50,942 nucleotides of DNA from a virus (lineage: Duplodnaviria; Heunggongvirae; Uroviricota; Caudoviricetes). The stretch lies in IMG/VR virus record IMGVR_UViG_2695420814_000010; one strand, given 5' to 3'. The position numbers and the translations under genes were made by a program. This document shows, piece after piece, positions 1-28,943 of the stretch. The notes below the pieces were generated by a model. The model was not told the DNA's origin, did not search any database, and saw only the letters and a list, made by a program, of their open reading frames with translations. The first letter of the stretch is position 1; each line of letters begins with the position of its first letter.

Positions 1-3000
1 CAGAGTGACGCTACCACCACCACTAGGCATATCAATAACTGCACTGTAACTACCGGGAATGGCACCTTTAGTTTCTCTGGATGCGATTAATACGCCGTTT
101 TTGCGAACTTCAAAACCATAACCCGTGTATCGCGTGCCTCCCGGGTTATTTCCGCTCCCCGGATCGTCATACGCTATACCGTTAAAAATAATGGGCGGAA
201 TAATAATCTGGCGGTCAAAGTTATGATCATCGCTGATGGTGACTGTAACCGTACCGTCTGGTGTTTCCGTGTTACCCCACGTACCGACTTTTTTCGGGAA
301 GGCTTTTGATACAGCTTTAACGAAATCCCCTCTGACCTGGGTCGCCTCCAGCATGCCCTTAATCGTACAGTTCTGGTTAATCGTGACATTGTTGAGCGTT
401 CCTGAGTTCGCATTCACACTACCACTGATATCCGCATTTTTAGCGGTCAGCTTTCCGTCTGATGTCAGGGAAAATACCGGAGGACTGCCACCGCTGGTAA
501 TGGCGGGGGCTGTCAGGCGCTTCAGGAACACGTCGTTCATGAATATCTGGTTGCCCTGCGCCACAAACATCGGCGTTTCATTCCCGTTTGCCGGGTCAAT
601 AAACGCGATACGATTGGCGGCAACCAGAAACTGGCTCAGCTTGCCTTCCTCCGTGTCCTCCATGCTGAGGCCAATACCCGCGACATAATGTTTGCCGTCT
701 TTGGTCTGCTCAATTTTGACGCCCCACATCGCATTCCATTTATCGTTAGCGTCCTTCCACTCTTTCGAAAACTCATCCAGTCTGCTGGCGTTATCCTCCG
801 TCAGATCAACTTTTTCCAGCAGCTCTTTACCGAGATGGGATTCGGTTATCTTGCCTTTGAAAAAATCCAGGTAACCTTCCGCATCATCGCTCGCCCGACC
901 GACGGCCTCCACGAATGCCGATTTGCCAACGGTGTTCACACTGCGGATATAAAAGTAATAATCATGGCCCGGTTTGATATTGATACTGGCGGCTATCCAG
1001 TACAGCCCCGCGCCAAGGTAGCGGGCTGTGGTTTCAACCTGCCTGATATCGGTAATCCGCGTTTCCGAGAACCAGAACTCAAACTGTACCGTCGGATCAT
1101 AAACCGCAAGATGCGGCGTGGCAGTTATCTGAAAATAGCCCGGCGTCAGCTCAATCCGCGACGGTGCTACCGGTGCGGCAATCCTGAACGATACCGACGC
1201 CGGATCGCCCTGCTGTCCCCAGGCATTTACCGCCCGGACTGTCAGCGTGTACCGTCCCAGCGCCAGTTGCGTGAAGCGGTATGTGGTTTCCGTCGTCCGG
1301 GCCGTGCTGACCAGCCGCTCACTGCCGTCATCCGCTGCCACGGTCAGGCGAAGCATAAAGCTCACCCCCTTCACCACCTTCGGCGTGTCCCAGCGCGCCA
1401 GCACCTGATATTCCCCGCTGTCTGCGGTGACTTCGGCAGTCAGGTGCTGCACCGCTGGCGGCGTGACACCATTCACCGTGCCGCTCTGGTCGCCGTCAAA
1501 GTGCGCCCCGTTATCCACGATGGCTTCTTTTTCCGGTACATGCTGCACGGCAGTGATGGCATACGTGCCGTCATCGTTCTCACGGATACTCACACAGCGG
1601 AACAGGCGCTGGCGCAACGTCGGCAGCTTCAGCCCCCACACGCTGTATTCAGCAACGCCGTCAGGAACACGGCTCACTTTCACCTTCACGCCGTCGGTGA
1701 CGGACTGAACCTCCACGCTGACCGGATTGCCACTTCCGTCAACCAGGCTTATCAGCATGGTACCGGAGGATGGCAGCGTGATTTCACGGTCGAGCGTCAG
1801 CGTCCGGGTCTGGCTGTTTACCGCCAGCACGCGCCCGCCGATGCTGATACCCGCATAGTCATCATCACAGATTTCAATGACATCGCCCGGCACATGGCGA
1901 AGCCCTTCTGCGCCCACGCTGAAGTCCACGGTCTGCGTTTCCAGCAGTTCTGTTTTAATCAGCCACAGCCCGGCGCGGTGTGCCTGCCCCCGGCTGGTAC
2001 AGCCAAAAGCATCCATCTTCGTGACGTTACGACCGTAACGGGCAATGGCCTGCGTATCCTCCACAAGCTCTGTCGCCGTCTCCCAGCCGTTATCCGGGTC
2101 AATCCAGTTCACCTCAACGGCATTATGGCGGTCTTTCAGGGCGCTGAAGCTGTAGCGGAACGGCGCGCCATCATCCGGCATCACCACATTACTGCGGTTA
2201 TAGGTCCACACCTTATCCGACGGTCGGTCCTGCACGAACGTCAGCGTCTGCCCGTTCCATACCGGCATACAGCGCATCGCCGAGCAGAAATCACTGAGCA
2301 CATCCCACGCCTTGCGCTGTGTGGTCAGGTACGCATTACAGGTGATGCGCGGCTCCGTGCCGCCAAAGCCGTCCGGCACTGACTGGTCGCAGTACTGGCC
2401 GATGACATACAGCGCCCATTTGTCCACATCCGCCGCACCAAGACGTTTCCCCATGCCGTAGCGCGGGTGGGTCAGCATATCCCACAGACACCAGGCCATG
2501 TTGTTGCTGTATGCTGGTTTTAACGTTCCGTCCCAGATACCGCTGTATTGTCGCGTCTGCGGGTTATAGTTCGACGGCACCTGCAGAATGCGCCCGCGAA
2601 GATGATAATTACGACTCACCTGCTGGCTGCCGAACTGCTCCGAGTCCACCTGTACGCCGACCAGTGCAGTGTTCGGGTAGCACTGTTTCACATCGATGAT
2701 TTCGGTGTATGACGACCAGAGCGTTTTGTTCTGCAGCTGGTCTGTGGTGCTGTCCGGTGTCATCCTGCGCATCCGGATACTGAACGGGCGCGGAGGCAGG
2801 TTATCCACCACCACCGAGACCAGATACTGCGAGGTGGTTTTGCCCTTAATGGTGATGTCTTTTTCCGTCACCCAGCCACCGTTACGCTGTATCTGAACCA
2901 GCAGGCGGACTTCCGACGGATTCCTGTCTCCCTTTGAGGTGGTTTCCACCAGTGCCTGTACACCGAAGGTAAAGCGCAGACGGTCGATGTTTGCCGACGT

Positions 3001-4666: not shown

Positions 4667-5365
4667 TTACTGCGAAAGTTTGTTAATGGAAAGGAAGCCG
4701 CCAAAGTTGCCGACGTTATTGCGGAACTTACAACCGCTCAGGCATTTGCTGCATTTATCCTTCGTGATATCGGACGTTGGCTGGTCATATTCATCCGCGA
4801 CAGCCGGACCGTGATAACCGCACTCATCACCGCGATAGGTCCAGGTGCAGGTATTAGCAAGCATGATGCGCCCCGGAAAAACAGCGCCGTCCGTTTCCGT
4901 CGGCGTGGACAGTACAAAGGAGGCACTGACCGCGCTCAGTTCGCTGCACTGCTCAATACGCCAGCGGCTGATCACCTCCTGCTCCGGATCGGCGTCACTG
5001 TTTCCGTTGACGAAGTTCACCGCATCCAGAAAACGGGCGTAAACCTTACGCCTGACCACCGTTCCGCCGACCAGACTCTGCAGGTCTTCCGCCATCCCGG
5101 TGACCATGCCGTGCAGATTAGAGACTTTCAGCGTTGGCCTTGCACTGGCACCTTTGCCGTTCATCTCAAATCCACTCCCCTGAATGGGATAGGCCTGATA
5201 CTGCCGACTCTGCCAGGTGACAGACTCTCCTTTCTCGTTCTGCTCATTGCAGAAAAAGTAGCGATCCCCGCCTACCTCGGTCAGGTCGATTTCCCAGAGC
5301 ACCACGCTGGCCGACTGCTCCGCACGAATGCATTCATTCAGCGTTTCCTGTTGTATGTCCTGCAT
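4667..5365 (-). CDS. L: Minor tail protein L
   Basis: 232-aa ORF, same length and close sequence match to lambda gpL ([33 protein letters not shown]...). Confidence 0.85.
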   Translation of the reverse strand: MQDIQQETLNECIRAEQSASVVLWEIDLTEVGGDRYFFCNEQNEKGESVTWQSRQYQAYPIQGSGFEMNGKGASARPTLKVSNLHGMVTGMAEDLQSLVGGTVVRRKVYARFLDAVNFVNGNSDADPEQEVISRWRIEQCSELSAVSASFVLSTPTETDGAVFPGRIMLANTCTWTYRGDECGYHGPAVADEYDQPTSDITKDKCSKCLSGCKFRNNVGNFGGFLSINKLSQ

Positions 5366-5703
5366 CAGATCACCACTTCGTCAAACTGACACGAAAAATC
5401 GGTATAGGTGATATGTTCTGTCGCTGACCACGTTCGACACACCACTCTGATTTTTCTGTTAATACCCGGCGGGCGCCAAAAAAAAGATTTATAGCCTTCA
5501 TGCCGGGCTAAAAATTTTTCAAATGAATCACGTTCATTCGCCTCAACTTTGAAATCACAGGTGAAAACGCGCAGAGAATGATTAAGTCCATTTGGACTTC
5601 GTTGCTCATAACCATCACCAAATCTTACAGTTTTTATCGATGGTTTATTTTCTGTTTTCATTCCATCCTCTGGTAACCAGTGAAATTCTTCCGTATTAGC
5701 CAC
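5365..5703 (-). CDS. M: Minor tail protein M
   Basis: 112-aa ORF between H and L with the [10 protein letters not shown]...FFWRPP pattern of lambda gpM; start overlaps the H stop. Confidence 0.75.
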
Positions 5704-21702: not shown

Positions 21703-23160
21703 TTAGGAGCGCCAAAAAAAACCTGAAAACAATATAATAACAGGATAAATTTCAAGGCGACCAAGAATCATAGCTATGCACATTAAATATTTTGCAATGT
21801 CATTAAGCACTCCGAATGACGATGCAGTAGCCCCAAAACCTAATCCCATATTATTAATACATGCAGCCACTGTTGCAAATGATGTAAGAAAATCATATCC
21901 CATACCATTTAACACCAGTATAAAAAACACCGTGAAGAGAGTATAAAGAAAAAAGAAACTCCATACAGACCTCATTACACGATCTGTAACTATCTTCCCT
22001 CCTACATTTACACTCAACAACGCTCTGGGATGAGAAAGCTGATTTATCTCGTGTTTGCTTTGTTTGAAAAGTATAAGAAATCGAAGTGACTTAATTCCAC
22101 CACAGGTTGAACCTATACATCCCCCAAAGAAACTTGACAACAGCAAAAACACTATCGTGTGCGTGGGCCAGTTTGCATAATCCTGCGTAGCTAAACCATT
22201 ATCAGTGAGCATGGAGCTGGCAAGAAAAAACGAATGAATAAAACTTCCATGCAAGTCATACATACCTATATGCCAGACCTGGAAAGAGGTAACAATGATC
22301 ACCCCTAAGGCTATTAACAGAAAGAAACGAAGTTCAATATCTCTGATTAAAGGTTTTATCGTTTTTCTGCTAATAACAATATACCAAAGAGTGAAGTTGA
22401 AAGCCGATAGCAGGGAAAAAGAACCAGCCACCAGCTCAACCAAATAGTTATTAAAATATCCGATACTCTCGCTATGAGTTGAGAAACCACCAAGCGAAAC
22501 TGTGGAAATCCCGTGACAAATAGCATCAAACAAAGGCATTCCTGCAAGTCTATAACAGACAATACAAGCAATACCTAATAAAGAATAAGTTATCCACAGT
22601 GTCCGTGACGTATCGGCCAGGCGGGGAGTGAGTTTGTCATCCTTAAATGGCCCCGGCATTTCTGACTGATAAAGCTTTGCACCACCAATACCCAATAATG
22701 GCAATACTGCAACCGCCAGAACAATAACTCCTAAACCACCTATAAAATTTAACTGTGACCGATAGTACAAATATGCCCGAGGTAATGAACTAACATCATC
22801 AATTACAGTTGCTCCTGTTGTTGTTATTCCAGAAACCCCTTCAAACAGAGCATCAATGAACGTTAAATTAAGTTCTGAGTCAATCCATAAAGGGAATGCA
22901 CTAATAACAGAAAACAAAATCCAAAACATTACAATTATAATAAACCCATCACGGGTACGTAATTGAATGCCAGATTTCTTAGTTGTATACCACGCTCCGC
23001 CACCAATGCAAAAAAATATAACGAAAGTTATAAAGAAAACGAACAGGCTTTTTTCTTTATAAAACAATGCTACAACCATTGGTGGCAACATTGAAAGACT
23101 ATAGAGCCAAACCAGGAACCCACACATATGAGTAACAACTCTTACATGAGATGTATTCAT
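21703..23160 (-). CDS. trkG: Trk-system potassium uptake membrane protein TrkG
   Basis: Polytopic membrane ORF (track 21703..23178) with repeated glycine-rich pore motifs (GITTTGATV; SLGGFSTH; GGCIGSTCGGIK; GLGFGA). Start taken at MNTSHVRVV, 485 aa as recalled for Rac trkG. Confidence 0.85.
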   Translation of the reverse strand: MNTSHVRVVTHMCGFLVWLYSLSMLPPMVVALFYKEKSLFVFFITFVIFFCIGGGAWYTTKKSGIQLRTRDGFIIIVMFWILFSVISAFPLWIDSELNLTFIDALFEGVSGITTTGATVIDDVSSLPRAYLYYRSQLNFIGGLGVIVLAVAVLPLLGIGGAKLYQSEMPGPFKDDKLTPRLADTSRTLWITYSLLGIACIVCYRLAGMPLFDAICHGISTVSLGGFSTHSESIGYFNNYLVELVAGSFSLLSAFNFTLWYIVISRKTIKPLIRDIELRFFLLIALGVIIVTSFQVWHIGMYDLHGSFIHSFFLASSMLTDNGLATQDYANWPTHTIVFLLLSSFFGGCIGSTCGGIKSLRFLILFKQSKHEINQLSHPRALLSVNVGGKIVTDRVMRSVWSFFFLYTLFTVFFILVLNGMGYDFLTSFATVAACINNMGLGFGATASSFGVLNDIAKYLMCIAMILGRLEIYPVIILFSGFFWRS

Positions 23161-23297
23161 ATCTAAATATTCTTTCAATTATAACCACCTTGCTGCAATA
23201 TTATGATTATACTGTATAAAATTTAACTCCTCTTAGATCTTACTTCACTGTTCCTTATGAAACAATCATCAAAATGAATCATATTGTAGTTAAGATT

Positions 23298-23762
23298 TTA
23301 CTTTAAACACTGCTCGGTTATGTATTGCTGAGCACCTTCAAGTTGGGCCTGCATCATTACCAGTCGTTCCCGGAGGGTGAAATAATCCCGTTCAGCGGTG
23401 TCTGCCAGTCGGGGGGAGGCTGCATTATCCACGCCGGAGGCGGTGGTGGCTTCACGCACTGACTGACAGACTGCTTTGATGTGCAACCGACGACGACCAG
23501 CGGCAACATCATCACGCAGAGCATCATTTTCAGCTTTCGCATCAGCTAACTCCTTCGTGTATTTTGCATCGAGCGCAGCAACATCACGCTGACGCATCTG
23601 CATGTCAGTAATTGCCGCGTTCGCCAGCTTCAGTTCTCTGGCATTTTTGTCGCGCTGGGCTTTGTAGGTAATGGCGTTATCACGGTAATGATTAACAGCC
23701 CATGACAGGCAGACGATGATGCAGATAACCAGAGCGGAGATAATCGCGGTTACTCTGTTCAT
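23298..23762 (-). CDS. Rz: Spanin inner-membrane subunit Rz
   Basis: [38 protein letters not shown]..., near-identical to lambda Rz; ATG overlaps the endolysin stop (ATGA). Confidence 0.85.
23357..23542 (-). CDS. Rz1: Spanin outer-membrane lipoprotein Rz1 (embedded in Rz in the +1 frame)
   Basis: 61-aa ORF wholly inside Rz; lipobox VVVGC and Pro-rich [16 protein letters not shown]. Confidence 0.8.
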
Positions 23763-24256
23763 TGCTGACCCCACAAACAGATTTCACGCTCAATCTCACG
23801 ACGAGTCATGAGACCTTTCCATTGCTTACCGCCAGCATATGTCCAGCGACGTAGCTGATCACATGCGCCTTTGATATCGCCCTGGTTTATTTTGCGAAGA
23901 AGCGTCGATGTTCTGAAATTGCCAGCACCCACGTTGTAAACGAATGAGTAAAGAGCGCCGCGCGTTGTTTCCGGTATATCGACTTTGATGTACGGGTTAA
24001 TTTGTCTGGCGACAGTGGCAAGGTCTTTATTCAAGAGTGTTTTGCATTCTGCTTTGGTATACGTTTTACCGAGCATGATGTCTTTTCCTGTATGCCCGTG
24101 ACATACAGTCCATACACCAACAATATCTTTGTATGGTATGTAGCTGACACCTTCCAGACCATCGTTACCACTTGGGCCAGTGATTAACACTGATGCTATA
24201 GCAATTGCTCCGCCACCAATAGCAGCAGCAACGACTTTTCGTAATGATGGAGGCAT
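23759..24256 (-). CDS. R: SAR endolysin (phage 21 R-type lysozyme)
   Basis: [36 protein letters not shown]...: Gly/Ala-rich signal-anchor-release N-terminus followed by a T4-lysozyme-like domain. Confidence 0.85.
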
Positions 24257-24471
24257 TATTCACCTCTCGCAGCCTTGCGCTTATCTTCTTTAATCTTGAA
24301 ATAAAGGTTTGTCAGGTACGTCAGCAGGCCAAATACCAGACTACCCAGCACACCGATTGCAGCCCACTGTGACGGAGTTACTCTATCGAGCAACTGTAAA
24401 AACCAGTAGCCAGCACTGCCTGCGGAGGTGCCGTAGGCAATGCCTGTTGAAATTTTGTCCATGGATTTCAT
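24256..24471 (-). CDS. S: Pinholin S (phage 21 S-type) with dual-start motif
   Basis: From Met20 of the track ORF: [24 protein letters not shown]...; the M-K-S-M start gives 71-aa antiholin and 68-aa holin forms; two TMDs. Confidence 0.85.
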
Positions 24472-24573
24472 AGCCTCACCTCCGCACGGAACGGATGGCA
24501 TAGTTATTATGTGTAGGCTTTCAGACACATCAATCAGAGCCTTAATTGATATATATGCTGGAGACGATGCAAT

Positions 24574-24597
24574 ATAAAAAGCTCGCCGTAGCGAGCT
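24574..24597 (-). terminator. Hairpin plus U-run between lipoprotein moron and holin
   Basis: Minus strand GCTCGC-TACG-GCGAGC followed by TTTTTATATT. Confidence 0.45.
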
Positions 24598-24722: not shown

Positions 24723-25118
24723 CTAACCTCGCATGTCAAAGCCAGATTTCTGAAAATCTCTGTAGACTTCCGGATTGTTGAAGGCCGGAAATTTGGCTTT
24801 ATGAGCTGCGGACTTTATCGCTTCGCAATAGGCTTTATCACCGTTACTGGTAGATATTTTTAACGCCGTGCCATCCTGAGAGAATTCCATATGCAACCTG
24901 CATTTTTTCCCTTTCCAGTTATGCGGCTCATCAAGTTTGGCATTAATTGCAGCTCTGATTCCCCGCGCTTGCGCCCCCCATTCATCCTGATCATCCCAGC
25001 GTCCTGAACTGCAACTACCTGTAGCAGTAGTTTTGTGGCAATCTGAAGGGTGTAAAGGTGTGCATCCCGCAACAAAACCGACCCAAAAAGTCAACATAAC
25101 GATTTTCTTTAATCCCAC
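24723..25118 (-). CDS. Lipoprotein with TolA C-terminal-domain (domain III)-like fold
   Basis: Signal peptide with lipobox VAGC; C-terminal KKCRLHMEFSQDGTALKI...YCEAIKSAAHKAKFPAFNNPEVYRDFQKSGFDMRG has the same Cys/Pro spacing as TolA domain III. Confidence 0.55.
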   Translation of the reverse strand: MGLKKIVMLTFWVGFVAGCTPLHPSDCHKTTATGSCSSGRWDDQDEWGAQARGIRAAINAKLDEPHNWKGKKCRLHMEFSQDGTALKISTSNGDKAYCEAIKSAAHKAKFPAFNNPEVYRDFQKSGFDMRG

Positions 25119-25268
25119 TTCTTGCTCCTCAATCCATTAAAATCTCAGCAATAGTAGTTGTTACGTCCGCCACTGGCTCAGAGCTGACTATCCGCTAAAT
25201 TTAGCTCAGTGCCGTAGCTGTGTCAGAACAAACCTAAGCCGAAACCGTTTATTACAAAACAATAAATA

Positions 25269-25697
25269 TCAGGGTTTAAAATCCAGCACCCCATTTTGAA
25301 ATACTTTATATACTTCCGGCGAAGGGGGGGCAGGTATATCAGCATTCTTTATCGCATTCATCGCTTCACGACATAAATCGAGGTCTCCACTTTCTCTTTT
25401 AACCTCCAGTAGAAGGCCATTCGGGGCCATATGCATTCTCAGTGTACACTCTTTTCCTGAATACTTACTCGCATCCCCGAACTGTTTTTCGATGGCGCTC
25501 TTGATTTGATGGGCATACAGACGGATATCCTCACTAACATCAGAAGTACGTTCAGATGAACTCACATACTGTGTCTCTATTGCTTTATCGGAGTAATATG
25601 ATGTACGGTCATGATAATTTGTCGATACAGCATCAGTGCACCCGATAATAATCCCACTAATAATCAACGTAAGAATTGATGCGCTACGAAAACCCAT
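25269..25697 (-). CDS. Lipoprotein with TolA C-terminal-domain (domain III) homology
   Basis: Lipobox IIGC; C-terminal 80 aa (YAHQIKSAIEKQFGDASKYSGKECTLRMHMAPNGLLLEVK...IPAPPSPEVYKVFQNGVLDFKP) aligns closely with the recalled E. coli TolA C-terminus (...YAGKTCTLRIKLAPDGMLLDIK...IPKPPSQAVYEVFKNAPLDFKP). Confidence 0.7.
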   Translation of the reverse strand: MGFRSASILTLIISGIIIGCTDAVSTNYHDRTSYYSDKAIETQYVSSSERTSDVSEDIRLYAHQIKSAIEKQFGDASKYSGKECTLRMHMAPNGLLLEVKRESGDLDLCREAMNAIKNADIPAPPSPEVYKVFQNGVLDFKP

Positions 25698-26285
25698 TTT
25701 TCCTCACATATGTCATATAGTAAAGGATTATATATACCGTTGTTTTGGACGCTCAAACAGCGAATCAGATCAAATAAAACGCACATTTGTTAACATTTAC
25801 ACAAAGTCTGCGTGGGATATTCTGAAAGAATATCCATAATGTGGAGAGAATCTATTGAAGTGCATGGTGCCGGGTGCCTCCCGGTGAACAAAATGTTCGT
25901 GATACCTGTCGGCGACAGAAAAGGTTAATGGTATCACCCCACCGCACAGGGGGATTCACCATGCAGGAGTTTTCTTAGCAAACTCACTGCGCGCCCGGCA
26001 ACTCCCAACCACATAAAATGCGGAGTTTGTGGCATTTATGCATATAACTCGCAGGAATTATCTTAAAAAACTGATGTCGATCCGGATTAAAAAGAAGCAG
26101 GTCATCATCAGATGACTGGAAAAAAGGAAAACAAAAAATACTCATCATACAGTTTTGATTGCAGGGATGAGCCTGCTATGCACAATATGCAGAATATAAG
26201 CAAGATAAAAATATGCAGGCATATTATTTCGGATCTTGTTATTAACACAACCTTTTTAATAATCATTTGGCATACAATAAACCAG

Positions 26286-26741: not shown

Positions 26742-27284
26742 TCAAGCCATTTTCTCAGCAAATGATTCACGCATGGGAATATATAGGGCATACTCAGCAA
26801 CAGCTAACCAATTAGCAATCCGTTTTTCGCATGTGCTAAAACACCACTCTGGGTGTGCATCATTTAGCAATTCAGCCATTTTGCGCTTAGTCATCCCCCG
26901 CCCTTCATAGCGTTGCCGGAGAATGCAAATCAATCCTGGATGCTCTGCCAGCACCTCACTTATGACTCGATCAATACATAACGCCTCTGCATCAGTACAA
27001 TGCGCCAGCCAGCTCTTTTGCTTGCCGTTGATCATCTCTCGCAAAAACGCTTCCAGCTCAGCTTTCTCTATTCCCGCTTTTTTCATTCTGCGCAGGGCTT
27101 CATTAATGGCTGTTTTCGTCAGTTTTTTGGATGCCAACAACTGATTGAACATATTCCCTGACCTGCCACCGCCAATATACGACCAGCGCCCCCACATACG
27201 TAGTTTTCCCTGAATCCAGACACTTTCCAGCGTGGTGAGGCGAAGGTGTTCTCCGCTTTTTCCTGTATTCGTTGGGTAAATCAT
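26742..27284 (-). CDS. Putative late-gene antiterminator Q
   Basis: 180-aa ORF in the Q position: last gene of the nin region, immediately upstream of the tR'-like terminator and late genes; start overlaps the ybcO-like stop (ATGA). Confidence 0.5.
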   Translation of the reverse strand: MIYPTNTGKSGEHLRLTTLESVWIQGKLRMWGRWSYIGGGRSGNMFNQLLASKKLTKTAINEALRRMKKAGIEKAELEAFLREMINGKQKSWLAHCTDAEALCIDRVISEVLAEHPGLICILRQRYEGRGMTKRKMAELLNDAHPEWCFSTCEKRIANWLAVAEYALYIPMRESFAEKMA

Positions 27285-27571: not shown

Positions 27572-28170
27572 TACGCAAACTCCAGTAGTTGTGCGGCCAC
27601 ATTTTCAACTTCCTCCTGAGAGGAGAATTTACGGAACAGAATCCAGTTCCACAGCACATTCAGTACAGATTTATAAACCTGCTGAAACTCGACTTCGTCC
27701 ATATTCGCAAAAGCGATGGATTTTGCCCGACGCCCACGGCTACCGTCCGGATAAATATGCTCGGTGTAAAATCCGGCCTGAATGGTTACCCACTCGCGGA
27801 AAGCCTCAAACGACTTTAGCAACGCCGTATCCCGGGTTCTACGAGTCGCAACGGTGTTAAGGTATTGCTCTGCGGCATCACTCAGGGCTGGCGTGTGTTC
27901 CCGACCAACTGATTCGCACAGGTAATCAACGAAACCAGACAGCAGTTCTCGTTCGCGAGGCGTGATCGCCCCACCGACCGGAGTCCAGTAATCGAATCCC
28001 AGTTGCAGGAGTTTGAAAAAACGCTTGTGGAATGCGTAGTTACGCACACGCTTAAAGTCTGCGTGTATCCACTCACCTATTTTGATTTGATGCAGAAAAT
28101 CGCAACTCTCCGGCGTCGCCGGGAGAAGTAAACCAGAAGAGGTTTGTTTGACCAGTTGTATATGCGCCAT
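27571..28170 (-). CDS. Conserved nin-region phage protein (DUF1367-like, tentative)
   Basis: 199-aa ORF starting MAHIQLVKQTSSGLLLPATPESCDF; an IS-truncated paralogous copy lies at 34869..35184. Confidence 0.5.
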   Translation of the reverse strand: MAHIQLVKQTSSGLLLPATPESCDFLHQIKIGEWIHADFKRVRNYAFHKRFFKLLQLGFDYWTPVGGAITPRERELLSGFVDYLCESVGREHTPALSDAAEQYLNTVATRRTRDTALLKSFEAFREWVTIQAGFYTEHIYPDGSRGRRAKSIAFANMDEVEFQQVYKSVLNVLWNWILFRKFSSQEEVENVAAQLLEFA

Positions 28171-28450
28171 TTCTCAATCTCTCGATGGCGCAGCGCAGCA
28201 GATGCCAGTTGTTCAGGCTGACGAATAAAGTATAAATAAACTGGCTATGGTGTAAAGCCCCACATAGCATGAACAAACACTACATATCAAATAGCTGGTA
28301 CAAGGATAGAAATACGACACTTATTATTAAAAACGATTAGATAAATTACATTTTAATGTTATGCAAAAGTTCTTTTTTATCATAACATTTCAATAAAAGC
28401 ATTACAGATGCAATCATCCCGTCATCATCAATTATTTAAGGTGGTTAAAC

Positions 28451-28537
28451 ATGGAAAATAACAAGTTCGCACATCTCGCTCCTTTTTTATCCGTAATCCT
28501 TTTCGCTTGTTGTTTTATATGGGCATTATTTTTATAA
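28451..28537 (+). CDS. Candidate small hydrophobic peptide (28 aa)
   Basis: AAGGTGG Shine-Dalgarno 7 nt before ATG; MENNKFAHLAPFLSVILFACCFIWALFL has one predicted TM segment. Not in the ORF track (under 60 aa). Confidence 0.25.
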   Translation: MENNKFAHLAPFLSVILFACCFIWALFL

Positions 28538-28943
28538 AGTAGCCACATGATAAGTTGCTGGAATCATATTTCCCACTCAAGTCATTAACATTTGATAAGA
28601 TATATCTAAAAGGACGCCTTTACATTATTTATGCGTATATAATTTATTTATATACACAGTAAAGGTATCCTGGGAAAATATTTATCGTTAAAAAATACAT
28701 CATAAATAATTAAGCTGAAATTTCAGAACACAACTAATACACACAATAAGGTTCAGTAACAGTAATCTATGTGGACTACATCGAGATTTTTTGATTAAAC
28801 TTTAATAACTTATTCCTAACACACAGAATGCATAAACTAAAAGTAAAACAAATAGTTATACGAAAAACAACCATATTTATTCTATCTTCTCCTCTAATCA
28901 ACATATCAATTATGTGTTTCATAACAGCTTGACATAACCCTCC

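Follow-up and report, generated by a model that had tools for sequence, protein, structure and literature searches.

Prophage-encoded lipoproteins with a stand-alone TolA domain III as candidate outer-membrane decoys for colicins and filamentous phages

Introduction

Why does a prophage of Escherichia coli carry, just ahead of its lysis genes, two small lipoprotein genes that resemble the head domain of TolA, a domain that is indispensable for all group A colicins and for filamentous phages? This question is raised by a virus record of IMG/VR (IMGVR_UViG_2695420814_000010; Caudoviricetes), the 50,942 nucleotides of which were analyzed as a whole and are called the window below. The window is a Rac-like lambdoid prophage of E. 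coli, and the two genes in question, P1 (25269..25697, stop included) and P2 (24723..25118), lie in its slot between the Q gene and the holin gene. A reading of the letters of this DNA (the original prediction) had proposed two lipoprotein-type open reading frames (ORFs) with C-termini similar to domain III of TolA (TolAIII) at this place, and both ORFs are indeed present at these positions on the minus strand.

As described below, P1 and P2 are homologous to TolAIII, have lipoprotein signal peptides, and appear from their substitution patterns to be functional genes. We tentatively favor the possibility that they act as outer-membrane-anchored competitors for the ligands of TolA and would thereby confer tolerance to Tol-dependent colicins and filamentous phages, a reading built on sequence comparison and on analogy with studied TolA complexes. 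Colicins are produced by roughly one in three E. coli strains.

Results

P1 and P2 contain a TolA domain III

P1 and P2, which are lipoprotein precursors of 142 amino acids (ATG start) and 131 amino acids (GTG start) in the ORF list, were both matched by the Pfam family TolA_C (PF06519), the score being 82.6 bits (E = 2.4e-23) for P1 and 54.6 bits (E = 1.3e-14) for P2 against a gathering cutoff of 25 bits. When P1 was compared by phmmer with the sequences in the Protein Data Bank (PDB), residues 334-421 of E. coli TolA were hit with E = 5e-28 to 1e-26, and the alignment extended to the C-terminal ends of the two proteins (...IPAPPSPEVYKVFQNGVLDFKP versus ...IPKPPSQAVYEVFKNAPLDFKP). In BLASTP against E. 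coli TolA, furthermore, P1 was identical at 52 of 86 positions (60%; TolA 336-421) and P2, the more diverged of the two, at 26 of 77 (34%). The disulfide-forming pair of Cys residues is spaced by 25 residues in all three proteins, namely C363/C388 in TolA, C84/C109 in P1, and C73/C98 in P2. Judged from these scores, the homology of P1 and P2 to TolA is far beyond chance.

Structure prediction agrees with the sequence comparison. AlphaFold models had a predicted local distance difference test score (pLDDT) of about 90 for residues 55-142 of P1 (25272..25535) and above 90 for residues 45-131 of P2 (24726..24986). With Foldseek, the P1 model was superposed on TolA from the complex with g3p of phage If1 (2x9a_B) with a root-mean-square deviation (rmsd) of 0.6 Å and a TMt of 0.94 and on 1tol with an rmsd of 0.7 Å, while the P2 model was superposed on free TolAIII (3qdp) with an rmsd of 1.1 Å over 86 columns and a TMt of 0.92; across the entries of E. 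coli TolAIII, the rmsd ranged from 0.6 to 1.6 Å for P1 and from 1.0 to 1.4 Å for P2. For both domains, the models thus predict a TolAIII-type alpha/beta fold, in which the sheet has three strands and the two Cys residues are conserved. The close resemblance of the P1 C-terminus to TolA, which the original prediction had noted and proposed to check by alignment and modeling, is borne out by both.

The homology is confined to the head domain. Models of full-length TolA matched P1 and P2 only at model positions 265-387, i.e., the last quarter; the scores with NF007065 were 107.8 for P1 and 53.7 for P2 (cutoff, 213), and P1 exceeded the cutoff of TIGR02794 (75.6 versus 59.45) solely through the C-terminal quarter. 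We therefore rejected P1 and P2 as bona fide TolA orthologues: they have neither the membrane anchor nor the helical domain II, and they are not encoded in a tolQRA-tolB-pal operon.

The partner-binding edges of TolAIII in P1 and P2

TolAIII takes up its partners through beta-strand addition. Strand beta3 of TolA (A415-K420; L417-P421) hydrogen-bonds with the N1 domain of g3p and with colicin N and is needed for the binding of TolB (PMC4339652), and colicin A is bound by strand beta2 (L375-P380) with the help of three lysines (K368, K379, and K396) that make cation-pi contacts (PMC3365938). When the contact sites were transferred from TolA by the sequence alignments, the beta3 sequence LDFKP (417-421) was found to be identical in P1 and to be FDMRG in P2, and the beta2 sequence LLDIKP corresponded to LLEVKR in P1 and to ALKIST in P2. 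P1 keeps two of the three lysines for colicin A and P2 none of them. In the family alignment, an Asp equivalent to D418 of TolA is invariant in both the P1 and the P2 families. In TolA, beta-strand addition is abolished by proline substitutions at D418/K420, to which D139/K141 of P1 and D128/R130 of P2 correspond. On our reading, P1 is an E. coli-specific mimic and the better candidate for a decoy; P2 is diverged and very conserved, and its target is more likely to be a conserved partner, for example TolB.

Signal peptides and lipoboxes

The signal peptides of P1 (residues 1-20; 25638..25697) and P2 (residues 1-19; 25062..25118) start with a short run of basic character, continue with a hydrophobic core, and close with a lipobox, which is IIGC in P1 and VAGC in P2; in both, Thr follows at the +2 position. 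Both lipoboxes had been named in the original prediction and fit PROSITE PS51257, which was applied as an equivalent regular expression requiring the Cys at 15-35 and, close to the N-terminus, a basic residue; the lipobox Cys is residue 20 in P1 and residue 19 in P2, and a basic residue is found within the first seven positions. The expression also matched 118 of the 120 full-length matches in the P2 family and 31 of the 38 in the P1 family. In diverged variants of P1, the lipobox is preserved as LTAGC or LTTGC although the sequence of the signal peptide differs.

According to the standard Lol rule, a lipoprotein without Asp at the +2 position is sorted to the outer membrane. Because both proteins have Thr rather than Asp at this position, P1 and P2 are predicted to be lipidated and to sit in the outer membrane.

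P1 and P2 belong to separate families

P1 and P2 are 29% identical to each other, and P1 is nearer to TolA than to P2. P2 as a recent tandem duplicate of P1 was hence rejected, given this level of identity and the different subfamilies to which the two belong. The original prediction had regarded P2 as a diverged copy of P1; the homologous domain and the Cys spacing of 25 residues stand, but P2 represents a separate conserved family that is equipped with an extra Cys-loop. This segment (residues 19-44; 24987..25064) was identified in the family alignment as C19-x7-C27-x8-C36 ... DDQDEWG, and the C-x7-C-x8-C motif is conserved in the family and occurs in 11 representative clusters. The loop is without counterpart in TolA or P1, and the AlphaFold confidence is low there.

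Both genes are maintained by selection. The ratio of nonsynonymous to synonymous substitutions (dN/dS) by the Nei-Gojobori method was 0.33 between P1 and its variant in Shiga toxin-producing E. coli (STEC) and 0.08-0.12 between P2 and its homologues on plasmids and in other genera; no part of P2 is more constrained than the Cys-loop (0.01-0.10), and the values for both genes were 0.06-0.33 overall. By codon comparison, P1 and P2 are thus under purifying selection and are regarded as functional genes. The P2 family, with its added Cys-loop, is old and strongly conserved.

The annotation of P1 is at odds with these results. RefSeq/PGAP labels P1 as "tolA, incomplete, missing N-terminus," a pseudogene (locus L002, 12770..13030, corresponding to 25269..25529 of the window), and this call is an annotation artefact, given the lipobox of the full 142-residue ORF and the purifying selection on it. 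The pseudogene label of P1 in E. coli genomes is accordingly a systematic mis-annotation, by which P1 currently passes for a broken tolA gene. Other labels in the databases are [quoted passage not shown] and, for PHROG 5772, "unknown function."

Distribution of the two families

The cassette of P1 and P2 was found in 774 of 5,426 complete E. coli genomes (14%, about one in seven) and in one of 50,697 deposited phage genomes, mEp460_ev081, where the Q context differs from that of the window. The cassette, which most related phages lack, is accessory and, as its sequence distribution indicates, movable as a unit. P1-type genes formed 46 clusters that were essentially confined to the chromosomes of E. 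coli and Shigella, and 883 of the 5,426 E. coli genomes had one; the P1 variant of an STEC prophage (67% protein identity) stands alone, directly after tRNA genes, in an stx-type position.

P2-type genes formed 370 clusters in Citrobacter, Enterobacter, Serratia, Raoultella, and Klebsiella, with identities of 78-89%, and in these genera they are lone chromosomal genes in non-phage neighborhoods; in Enterobacter, the locus is fixed. Among the E. coli genomes, 1,263 of the 5,426 had a P2-type gene, with about 780 copies in prophages and about 515 on plasmids (about 88% identity), and a P2 homologue was contained in 607 plasmid records. On pO157, the homologue lies between the hok/psi region and toxB; others are on further large plasmids of E. 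coli and Shigella, and on conjugative plasmids of the IncI1 type a homologue about 88% identical to P2 is located directly downstream of the relaxase gene. Plasmid homologues were located at 5001..5432 in both loci L016 and L017 and at 4815..5246 in locus L003.

The Shine-Dalgarno sequence (GAGGAG in the window, six bases 5' of the GTG) and the start codon of P2 are conserved across phage, plasmid, and chromosomal homologues. We also considered a conserved promoter that moves with P2 and rejected it, as just about 45 nucleotides with the Shine-Dalgarno sequence and the start codon are common across the contexts and the sequence further upstream differs.

A wider class of stand-alone TolAIII lipoproteins

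A HMMER search with P2 against 1.84 billion representatives gave 130 matches, of which 72 were 100-175 amino acids long; 49 of these 72 had a lipobox, each representing a cluster at 50% identity, and none of the 49 had Asp at the +2 position. In this search, full-length TolA proteins ranked below the small TolAIII proteins, and the named members of the class came from Erwinia, Klebsiella, Enterobacter, and Dryocola. On this count of sequences, small TolAIII lipoproteins form a broad, unnamed class.

In Klebsiella, ColRNAI bacteriocin plasmids encode a TolAIII lipoprotein with the C-terminal sequence NAPLDFRP and 48% identity to the E. coli domain, and this gene is directly followed by one for a Sec-exported C-terminal domain of TonB. 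On a 10-kb ColRNAI plasmid of Klebsiella pneumoniae (locus L004), the two genes are at 4908..5279 and 5276..5641, the first overlapping the start of the second, beside a cluster for a colicin E3-like bacteriocin, immunity, and lysis. As read from its genes, such a plasmid would thus encode the head domains of the two envelope energy transducers next to each other, each as a stand-alone protein. A TolAIII lipoprotein 46% identical to E. coli TolAIII was also found on a Klebsiella IncF plasmid, pCuAs (locus L005, 4229..4777 and 4824..5258), where its gene is just downstream of that for a secreted thioredoxin-fold protein with a CxxC motif, which may be a dedicated disulfide helper.

The locus in the prophage

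The position between Q and the holin, as originally described, was confirmed by the neighboring genes, all on the minus strand where the strand was noted. The gene 5' of the pair (26742..27284, minus) encodes a Q-like antiterminator with a DUF1133 domain (Pfam, E = 2.5e-107), a weak match to Phage_antitermQ, and an assignment to PHROG 753 ("anti-termination protein Q-like"). The gene 3' of the pair (24256..24528, minus) is the first of the lysis cassette and encodes a P21-type holin (Pfam Phage_holin_2_1, E = 4.5e-35; PHROG holin), which is followed by the endolysin gene (23759..24256) and then by Rz/Rz1 (Rz, 23298..23774). Directly after Rz/Rz1, as in the Rac prophage of K-12, is trkG for a potassium transporter (21703..23178, minus); this is a second cargo gene of host type, located at the opposite end of the lysis cassette from P1 and P2.

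A sigma-70 promoter-like site was found 5' of P1 by a consensus scan (25727..25756, minus; 10 of 12 positions). The original prediction had read it as TTGAGC-16-TATATA; the -35 hexamer is the same, but the -10 is read two bases further, giving the predicted site TTGAGC-18-TATAAT. This candidate is weak evidence because such matches are common in the region, with 11 promoter-like sites found versus 6.6 +/- 2.4 expected by chance. Phage mEp460_ev081 has the same sequence at this site. The terminator proposed downstream at 24574..24597 proved to be real as a structure: scanning and folding placed an intrinsic terminator between P2 and the holin gene at 24570..24597 (minus), with a stem at 24597..24580 and a T-run, a folding energy of -13 kcal/mol, and a z-score of -4.18, none of 200 shuffled sequences folding as well. 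There is no terminator between P1 and P2, and the two therefore probably belong to one transcription unit, namely a small operon of cargo genes, in the order promoter, P1, P2, and terminator, within the late genes of the prophage.

At the upstream edge of the cassette is an STnc100-family repeat (25808..25994, minus; Rfam RF02076, 86.6 bits versus a gathering score of 47). In other prophages, too, this element is found next to the cassette or a variant of it, and in mEp460_ev081 it lies upstream of the cassette. Because the identity between the window and mEp460_ev081 begins inside the repeat, STnc100 may be the joint at which recombination exchanges cargo among the late regions of lambdoid phages. 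Five copies of STnc100 are present in the late region of an STEC prophage; outside the window, STnc100 was located at 5444..5634 in locus L001 and at 1944..2923 and 4683..4894 in locus L015.

Some other features of the region were considered and set aside. The GC content of the cassette (0.39-0.46) versus that of the lysis genes (0.46-0.50) was not decisive as a mark of foreign origin; matches to isrK near the Q gene were far below the Rfam gathering score; and a cargo island annotated in strain ECCHD184 was rejected as common to the window, since the ORF layout differs. A very AT-rich stretch (28150..28900; GC, 0.26-0.35) is located upstream of a NinB-like gene, and hokD is annotated nearby in a related strain.

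Discussion

If P1 and P2 are decoys of the TolA head, their products would be exported, lipidated at the lipobox Cys, and directed to the outer membrane, on the inner face of which a tether of 25-35 residues would present a free TolAIII. Because TolAIII binds its partners via beta-strand addition, an extra copy of the domain should capture the same ligands, namely domain N1 of g3p from filamentous phages, the translocation domains of the TolA-binding colicins N, A, K, and E1, and the N-terminus of TolB, on which the nuclease colicins depend. While real TolA is driven by the inner-membrane TolQR motor, the unenergised copy at the outer membrane would capture these ligands ahead of it. A lysogen would then be tolerant to Tol-dependent colicins and to phages of the Ff/If1 type, with some loosening of the Tol-Pal tethering of the outer membrane as a likely side effect. 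The ligand binding, the expression in a lysogen, and the phenotype of P1 and P2 are what we infer from their sequences.

A precedent for such an effect is available: when TolAIII is exported to the periplasm by itself, the outer membrane becomes leaky (PMC6195910, citing Levengood-Freyermuth 1993 and Wan & Baneyx 1998). The genomic contexts of the two families, including plasmids that encode pili or bacteriocins and the partner with a TonB domain, fit a protection of the carrier cell. Indeed, pili of IncI1-type plasmids attract phages of the If1 type. Exported TolAIII is reported to have given colicin tolerance as well in the 1993 experiments.

Several observations nonetheless weigh against this proposal. 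P1 and P2 lie in the Q-dependent late transcript and may hence be made mainly in lytic growth, when exclusion is of little use, and the candidate promoter is a consensus match only, in a region rich in such matches. P2 lacks all three contact lysines for colicin A and differs from TolA in the sequences of beta2 and beta3, and its conserved Cys-loop is unexplained by a decoy role. The very strong conservation of P2 and its fixed locus in Enterobacter are unlike a decoy in an arms race, and the divergence of its contact sites, the extreme conservation, and the Cys-loop together suggest a different, conserved partner. A decoy that titrates TolB should carry an envelope cost. When P1 and P2 were compared with the defense models of PADLOC-DB 2.0, furthermore, no family was matched at E values up to 1, and no functional study of such proteins was found in the full-text literature, the coverage of which leaves out most subscription journals. 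Since P2 homologues elsewhere are lone chromosomal genes outside phages, the term "decoy" fits P1 better than P2.

The alternative that survives best, although we regard it as unlikely, is that P1 and P2 are modulators of Tol-Pal, the anchored domains of which would bind the N-terminus of TolB and tune the mobilisation of Pal, resulting in more vesiculation, in the release of periplasmic or phage-encoded products, or in easier disruption of the outer membrane as the late operon fires. The location of the genes in the late transcript, directly upstream of those for holin, endolysin, and spanin, would be natural in that case, and the strong conservation of P2 fits a conserved host ligand; the TolA-TolB contact uses beta3, which both proteins keep in form, and periplasmic TolAIII causes leakage (PMC6195910). 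The same families, however, occur on plasmids and as lone chromosomal genes without lysis genes nearby, so that a role as lysis helper cannot be general; in the textbook model of lambda lysis, spanins already handle the outer membrane after the loss of peptidoglycan, and the terminator separates the pair from the holin gene.

Less probable still is that P1 and P2 are envelope or virulence cargo unrelated to the ligands of Tol, as Bor, Lom, and TraT are, with the TolA fold serving as a scaffold; such proteins might be exposed on the surface for serum resistance or adhesion or might use the Cys-loop of P2 for another partner. P2 homologues are indeed found on the virulence plasmid pO157 and other large plasmids of E. 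coli and Shigella, the most constrained part of P2 is the loop without counterpart in TolA, and several TolA contact residues are lost in P2. It would be hard to explain, nonetheless, why P1 keeps both binding edges of TolA almost unchanged if the ligands were irrelevant; surface exposure is without support, and the pairing with a C-terminal domain of TonB on a bacteriocin plasmid points to the import machinery. Finally, that the genes are non-functional debris of host tolA picked up by the phage is hardly credible and effectively ruled out: the PGAP pseudogene call and the match of P1 to just the last quarter of the TolA models would agree with it, but the ORFs are intact with Shine-Dalgarno sequences and a new lipoprotein signal peptide, the lipobox is conserved despite sequence divergence, dN/dS is low, the proteins form hundreds of clusters including 49 lipobox-bearing representative families, and the identity between P1 and host TolA, just 60%, is too low for a fragment acquired recently.

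Returning to P1 and P2 as competitors for TolA ligands, we consider with greater reserve a broader proposal, namely that Enterobacterales mobile elements carry a widespread and unrecognised group of import-blocking immunity factors; these would be outer-membrane-anchored or periplasmic copies of the head of TolA (of TonB on some plasmids) that catch the translocation domains of colicins, and g3p of filamentous phages, on arrival at the outer membrane, and P1 and P2 might be two specificities of this group, carried by about one in seven E. coli genomes. In published work, such "tolA" genes have been listed in passing on small plasmids, and a strain-specific list includes a prophage region of 1,355 bp described as "TolA protein, hypothetical protein." The domain is thus already known; what is new is its natural, stand-alone architecture with a predicted lipid anchor on mobile elements.

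With the cassette in 14% of complete E. coli genomes, the pair could shape the competition of strains in the gut if it blunts the Tol route. It could then explain some of the natural tolerance to colicins and could be a confounder for therapeutics based on colicins or phages and for tools of the M13 type. The copying of a host target as a decoy would also be a new principle among the defenses of prophages and plasmids, and the proteins would offer natural dominant-negative probes for research on Tol-Pal.

Comparison with known systems

Among known proteins, P1 and P2 resemble domain III of E. coli TolA itself (about residues 334-421; PDB entries 1TOL, 1S62, 3QDP, 3QDR, and 2X9A), with which they have in common the Pfam family, the predicted fold, and the Cys pair. 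TolA has the transmembrane domain I, the helical domain II, and the link to TolQR, whereas P1 and P2 have none of these; TolA spans from the inner membrane and is encoded in the tol-pal operon, whereas P1 and P2 are prophage-encoded and predicted to be lipid-anchored at the outer membrane. They also resemble the engineered periplasmic fusions of TolAIII (signal peptide-TolAIII; used in PMC6195910), in which the head domain is likewise exported alone. The leakiness caused by those fusions and the colicin tolerance reported for them amount to a dominant-negative tol phenotype, which is the kind of effect proposed for P1 and P2, but the fusions are artificial, soluble, and overproduced, whereas P1 and P2 are natural, diverged, predicted to be lipid-anchored, and presumably present at a low level.

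Among phage proteins, Cor (phi80, N15, and mEp phages) and Llp (T5) are also small accessory outer-membrane lipoproteins of phages or prophages, and they block an entry step that is also used by colicins, as proposed for P1 and P2. The likeness is one of logic only; Cor and Llp inactivate FhuA and are not copies of a host protein, and no sequence relationship to P1 and P2 was found. As for the position of the genes, the morons of lambdoid phages (bor, lom, stx, and gp15 of HK97) are, like the pair, extra genes inserted in a phage operon; the pair has a terminator downstream and a weak candidate promoter upstream. The P1 variant of the STEC prophage even occupies the position typical of the moron stx, although the proteins encoded by these morons differ from P1 and P2.

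A parallel in mechanism would be the immunity of cells infected with Ff phages, in which TolA is bound by the g3p that the cell itself produces after infection, with colicin tolerance and resistance to superinfection as the result. The same interface, namely that between g3p N1 and beta3 of TolA, is used there to shut the Tol entry route, as is proposed for P1 and P2. In Ff immunity, however, the ligand of the invader saturates the TolA of the host, whereas P1 and P2 would be copies of the host target that soak up the ligand of the invader.

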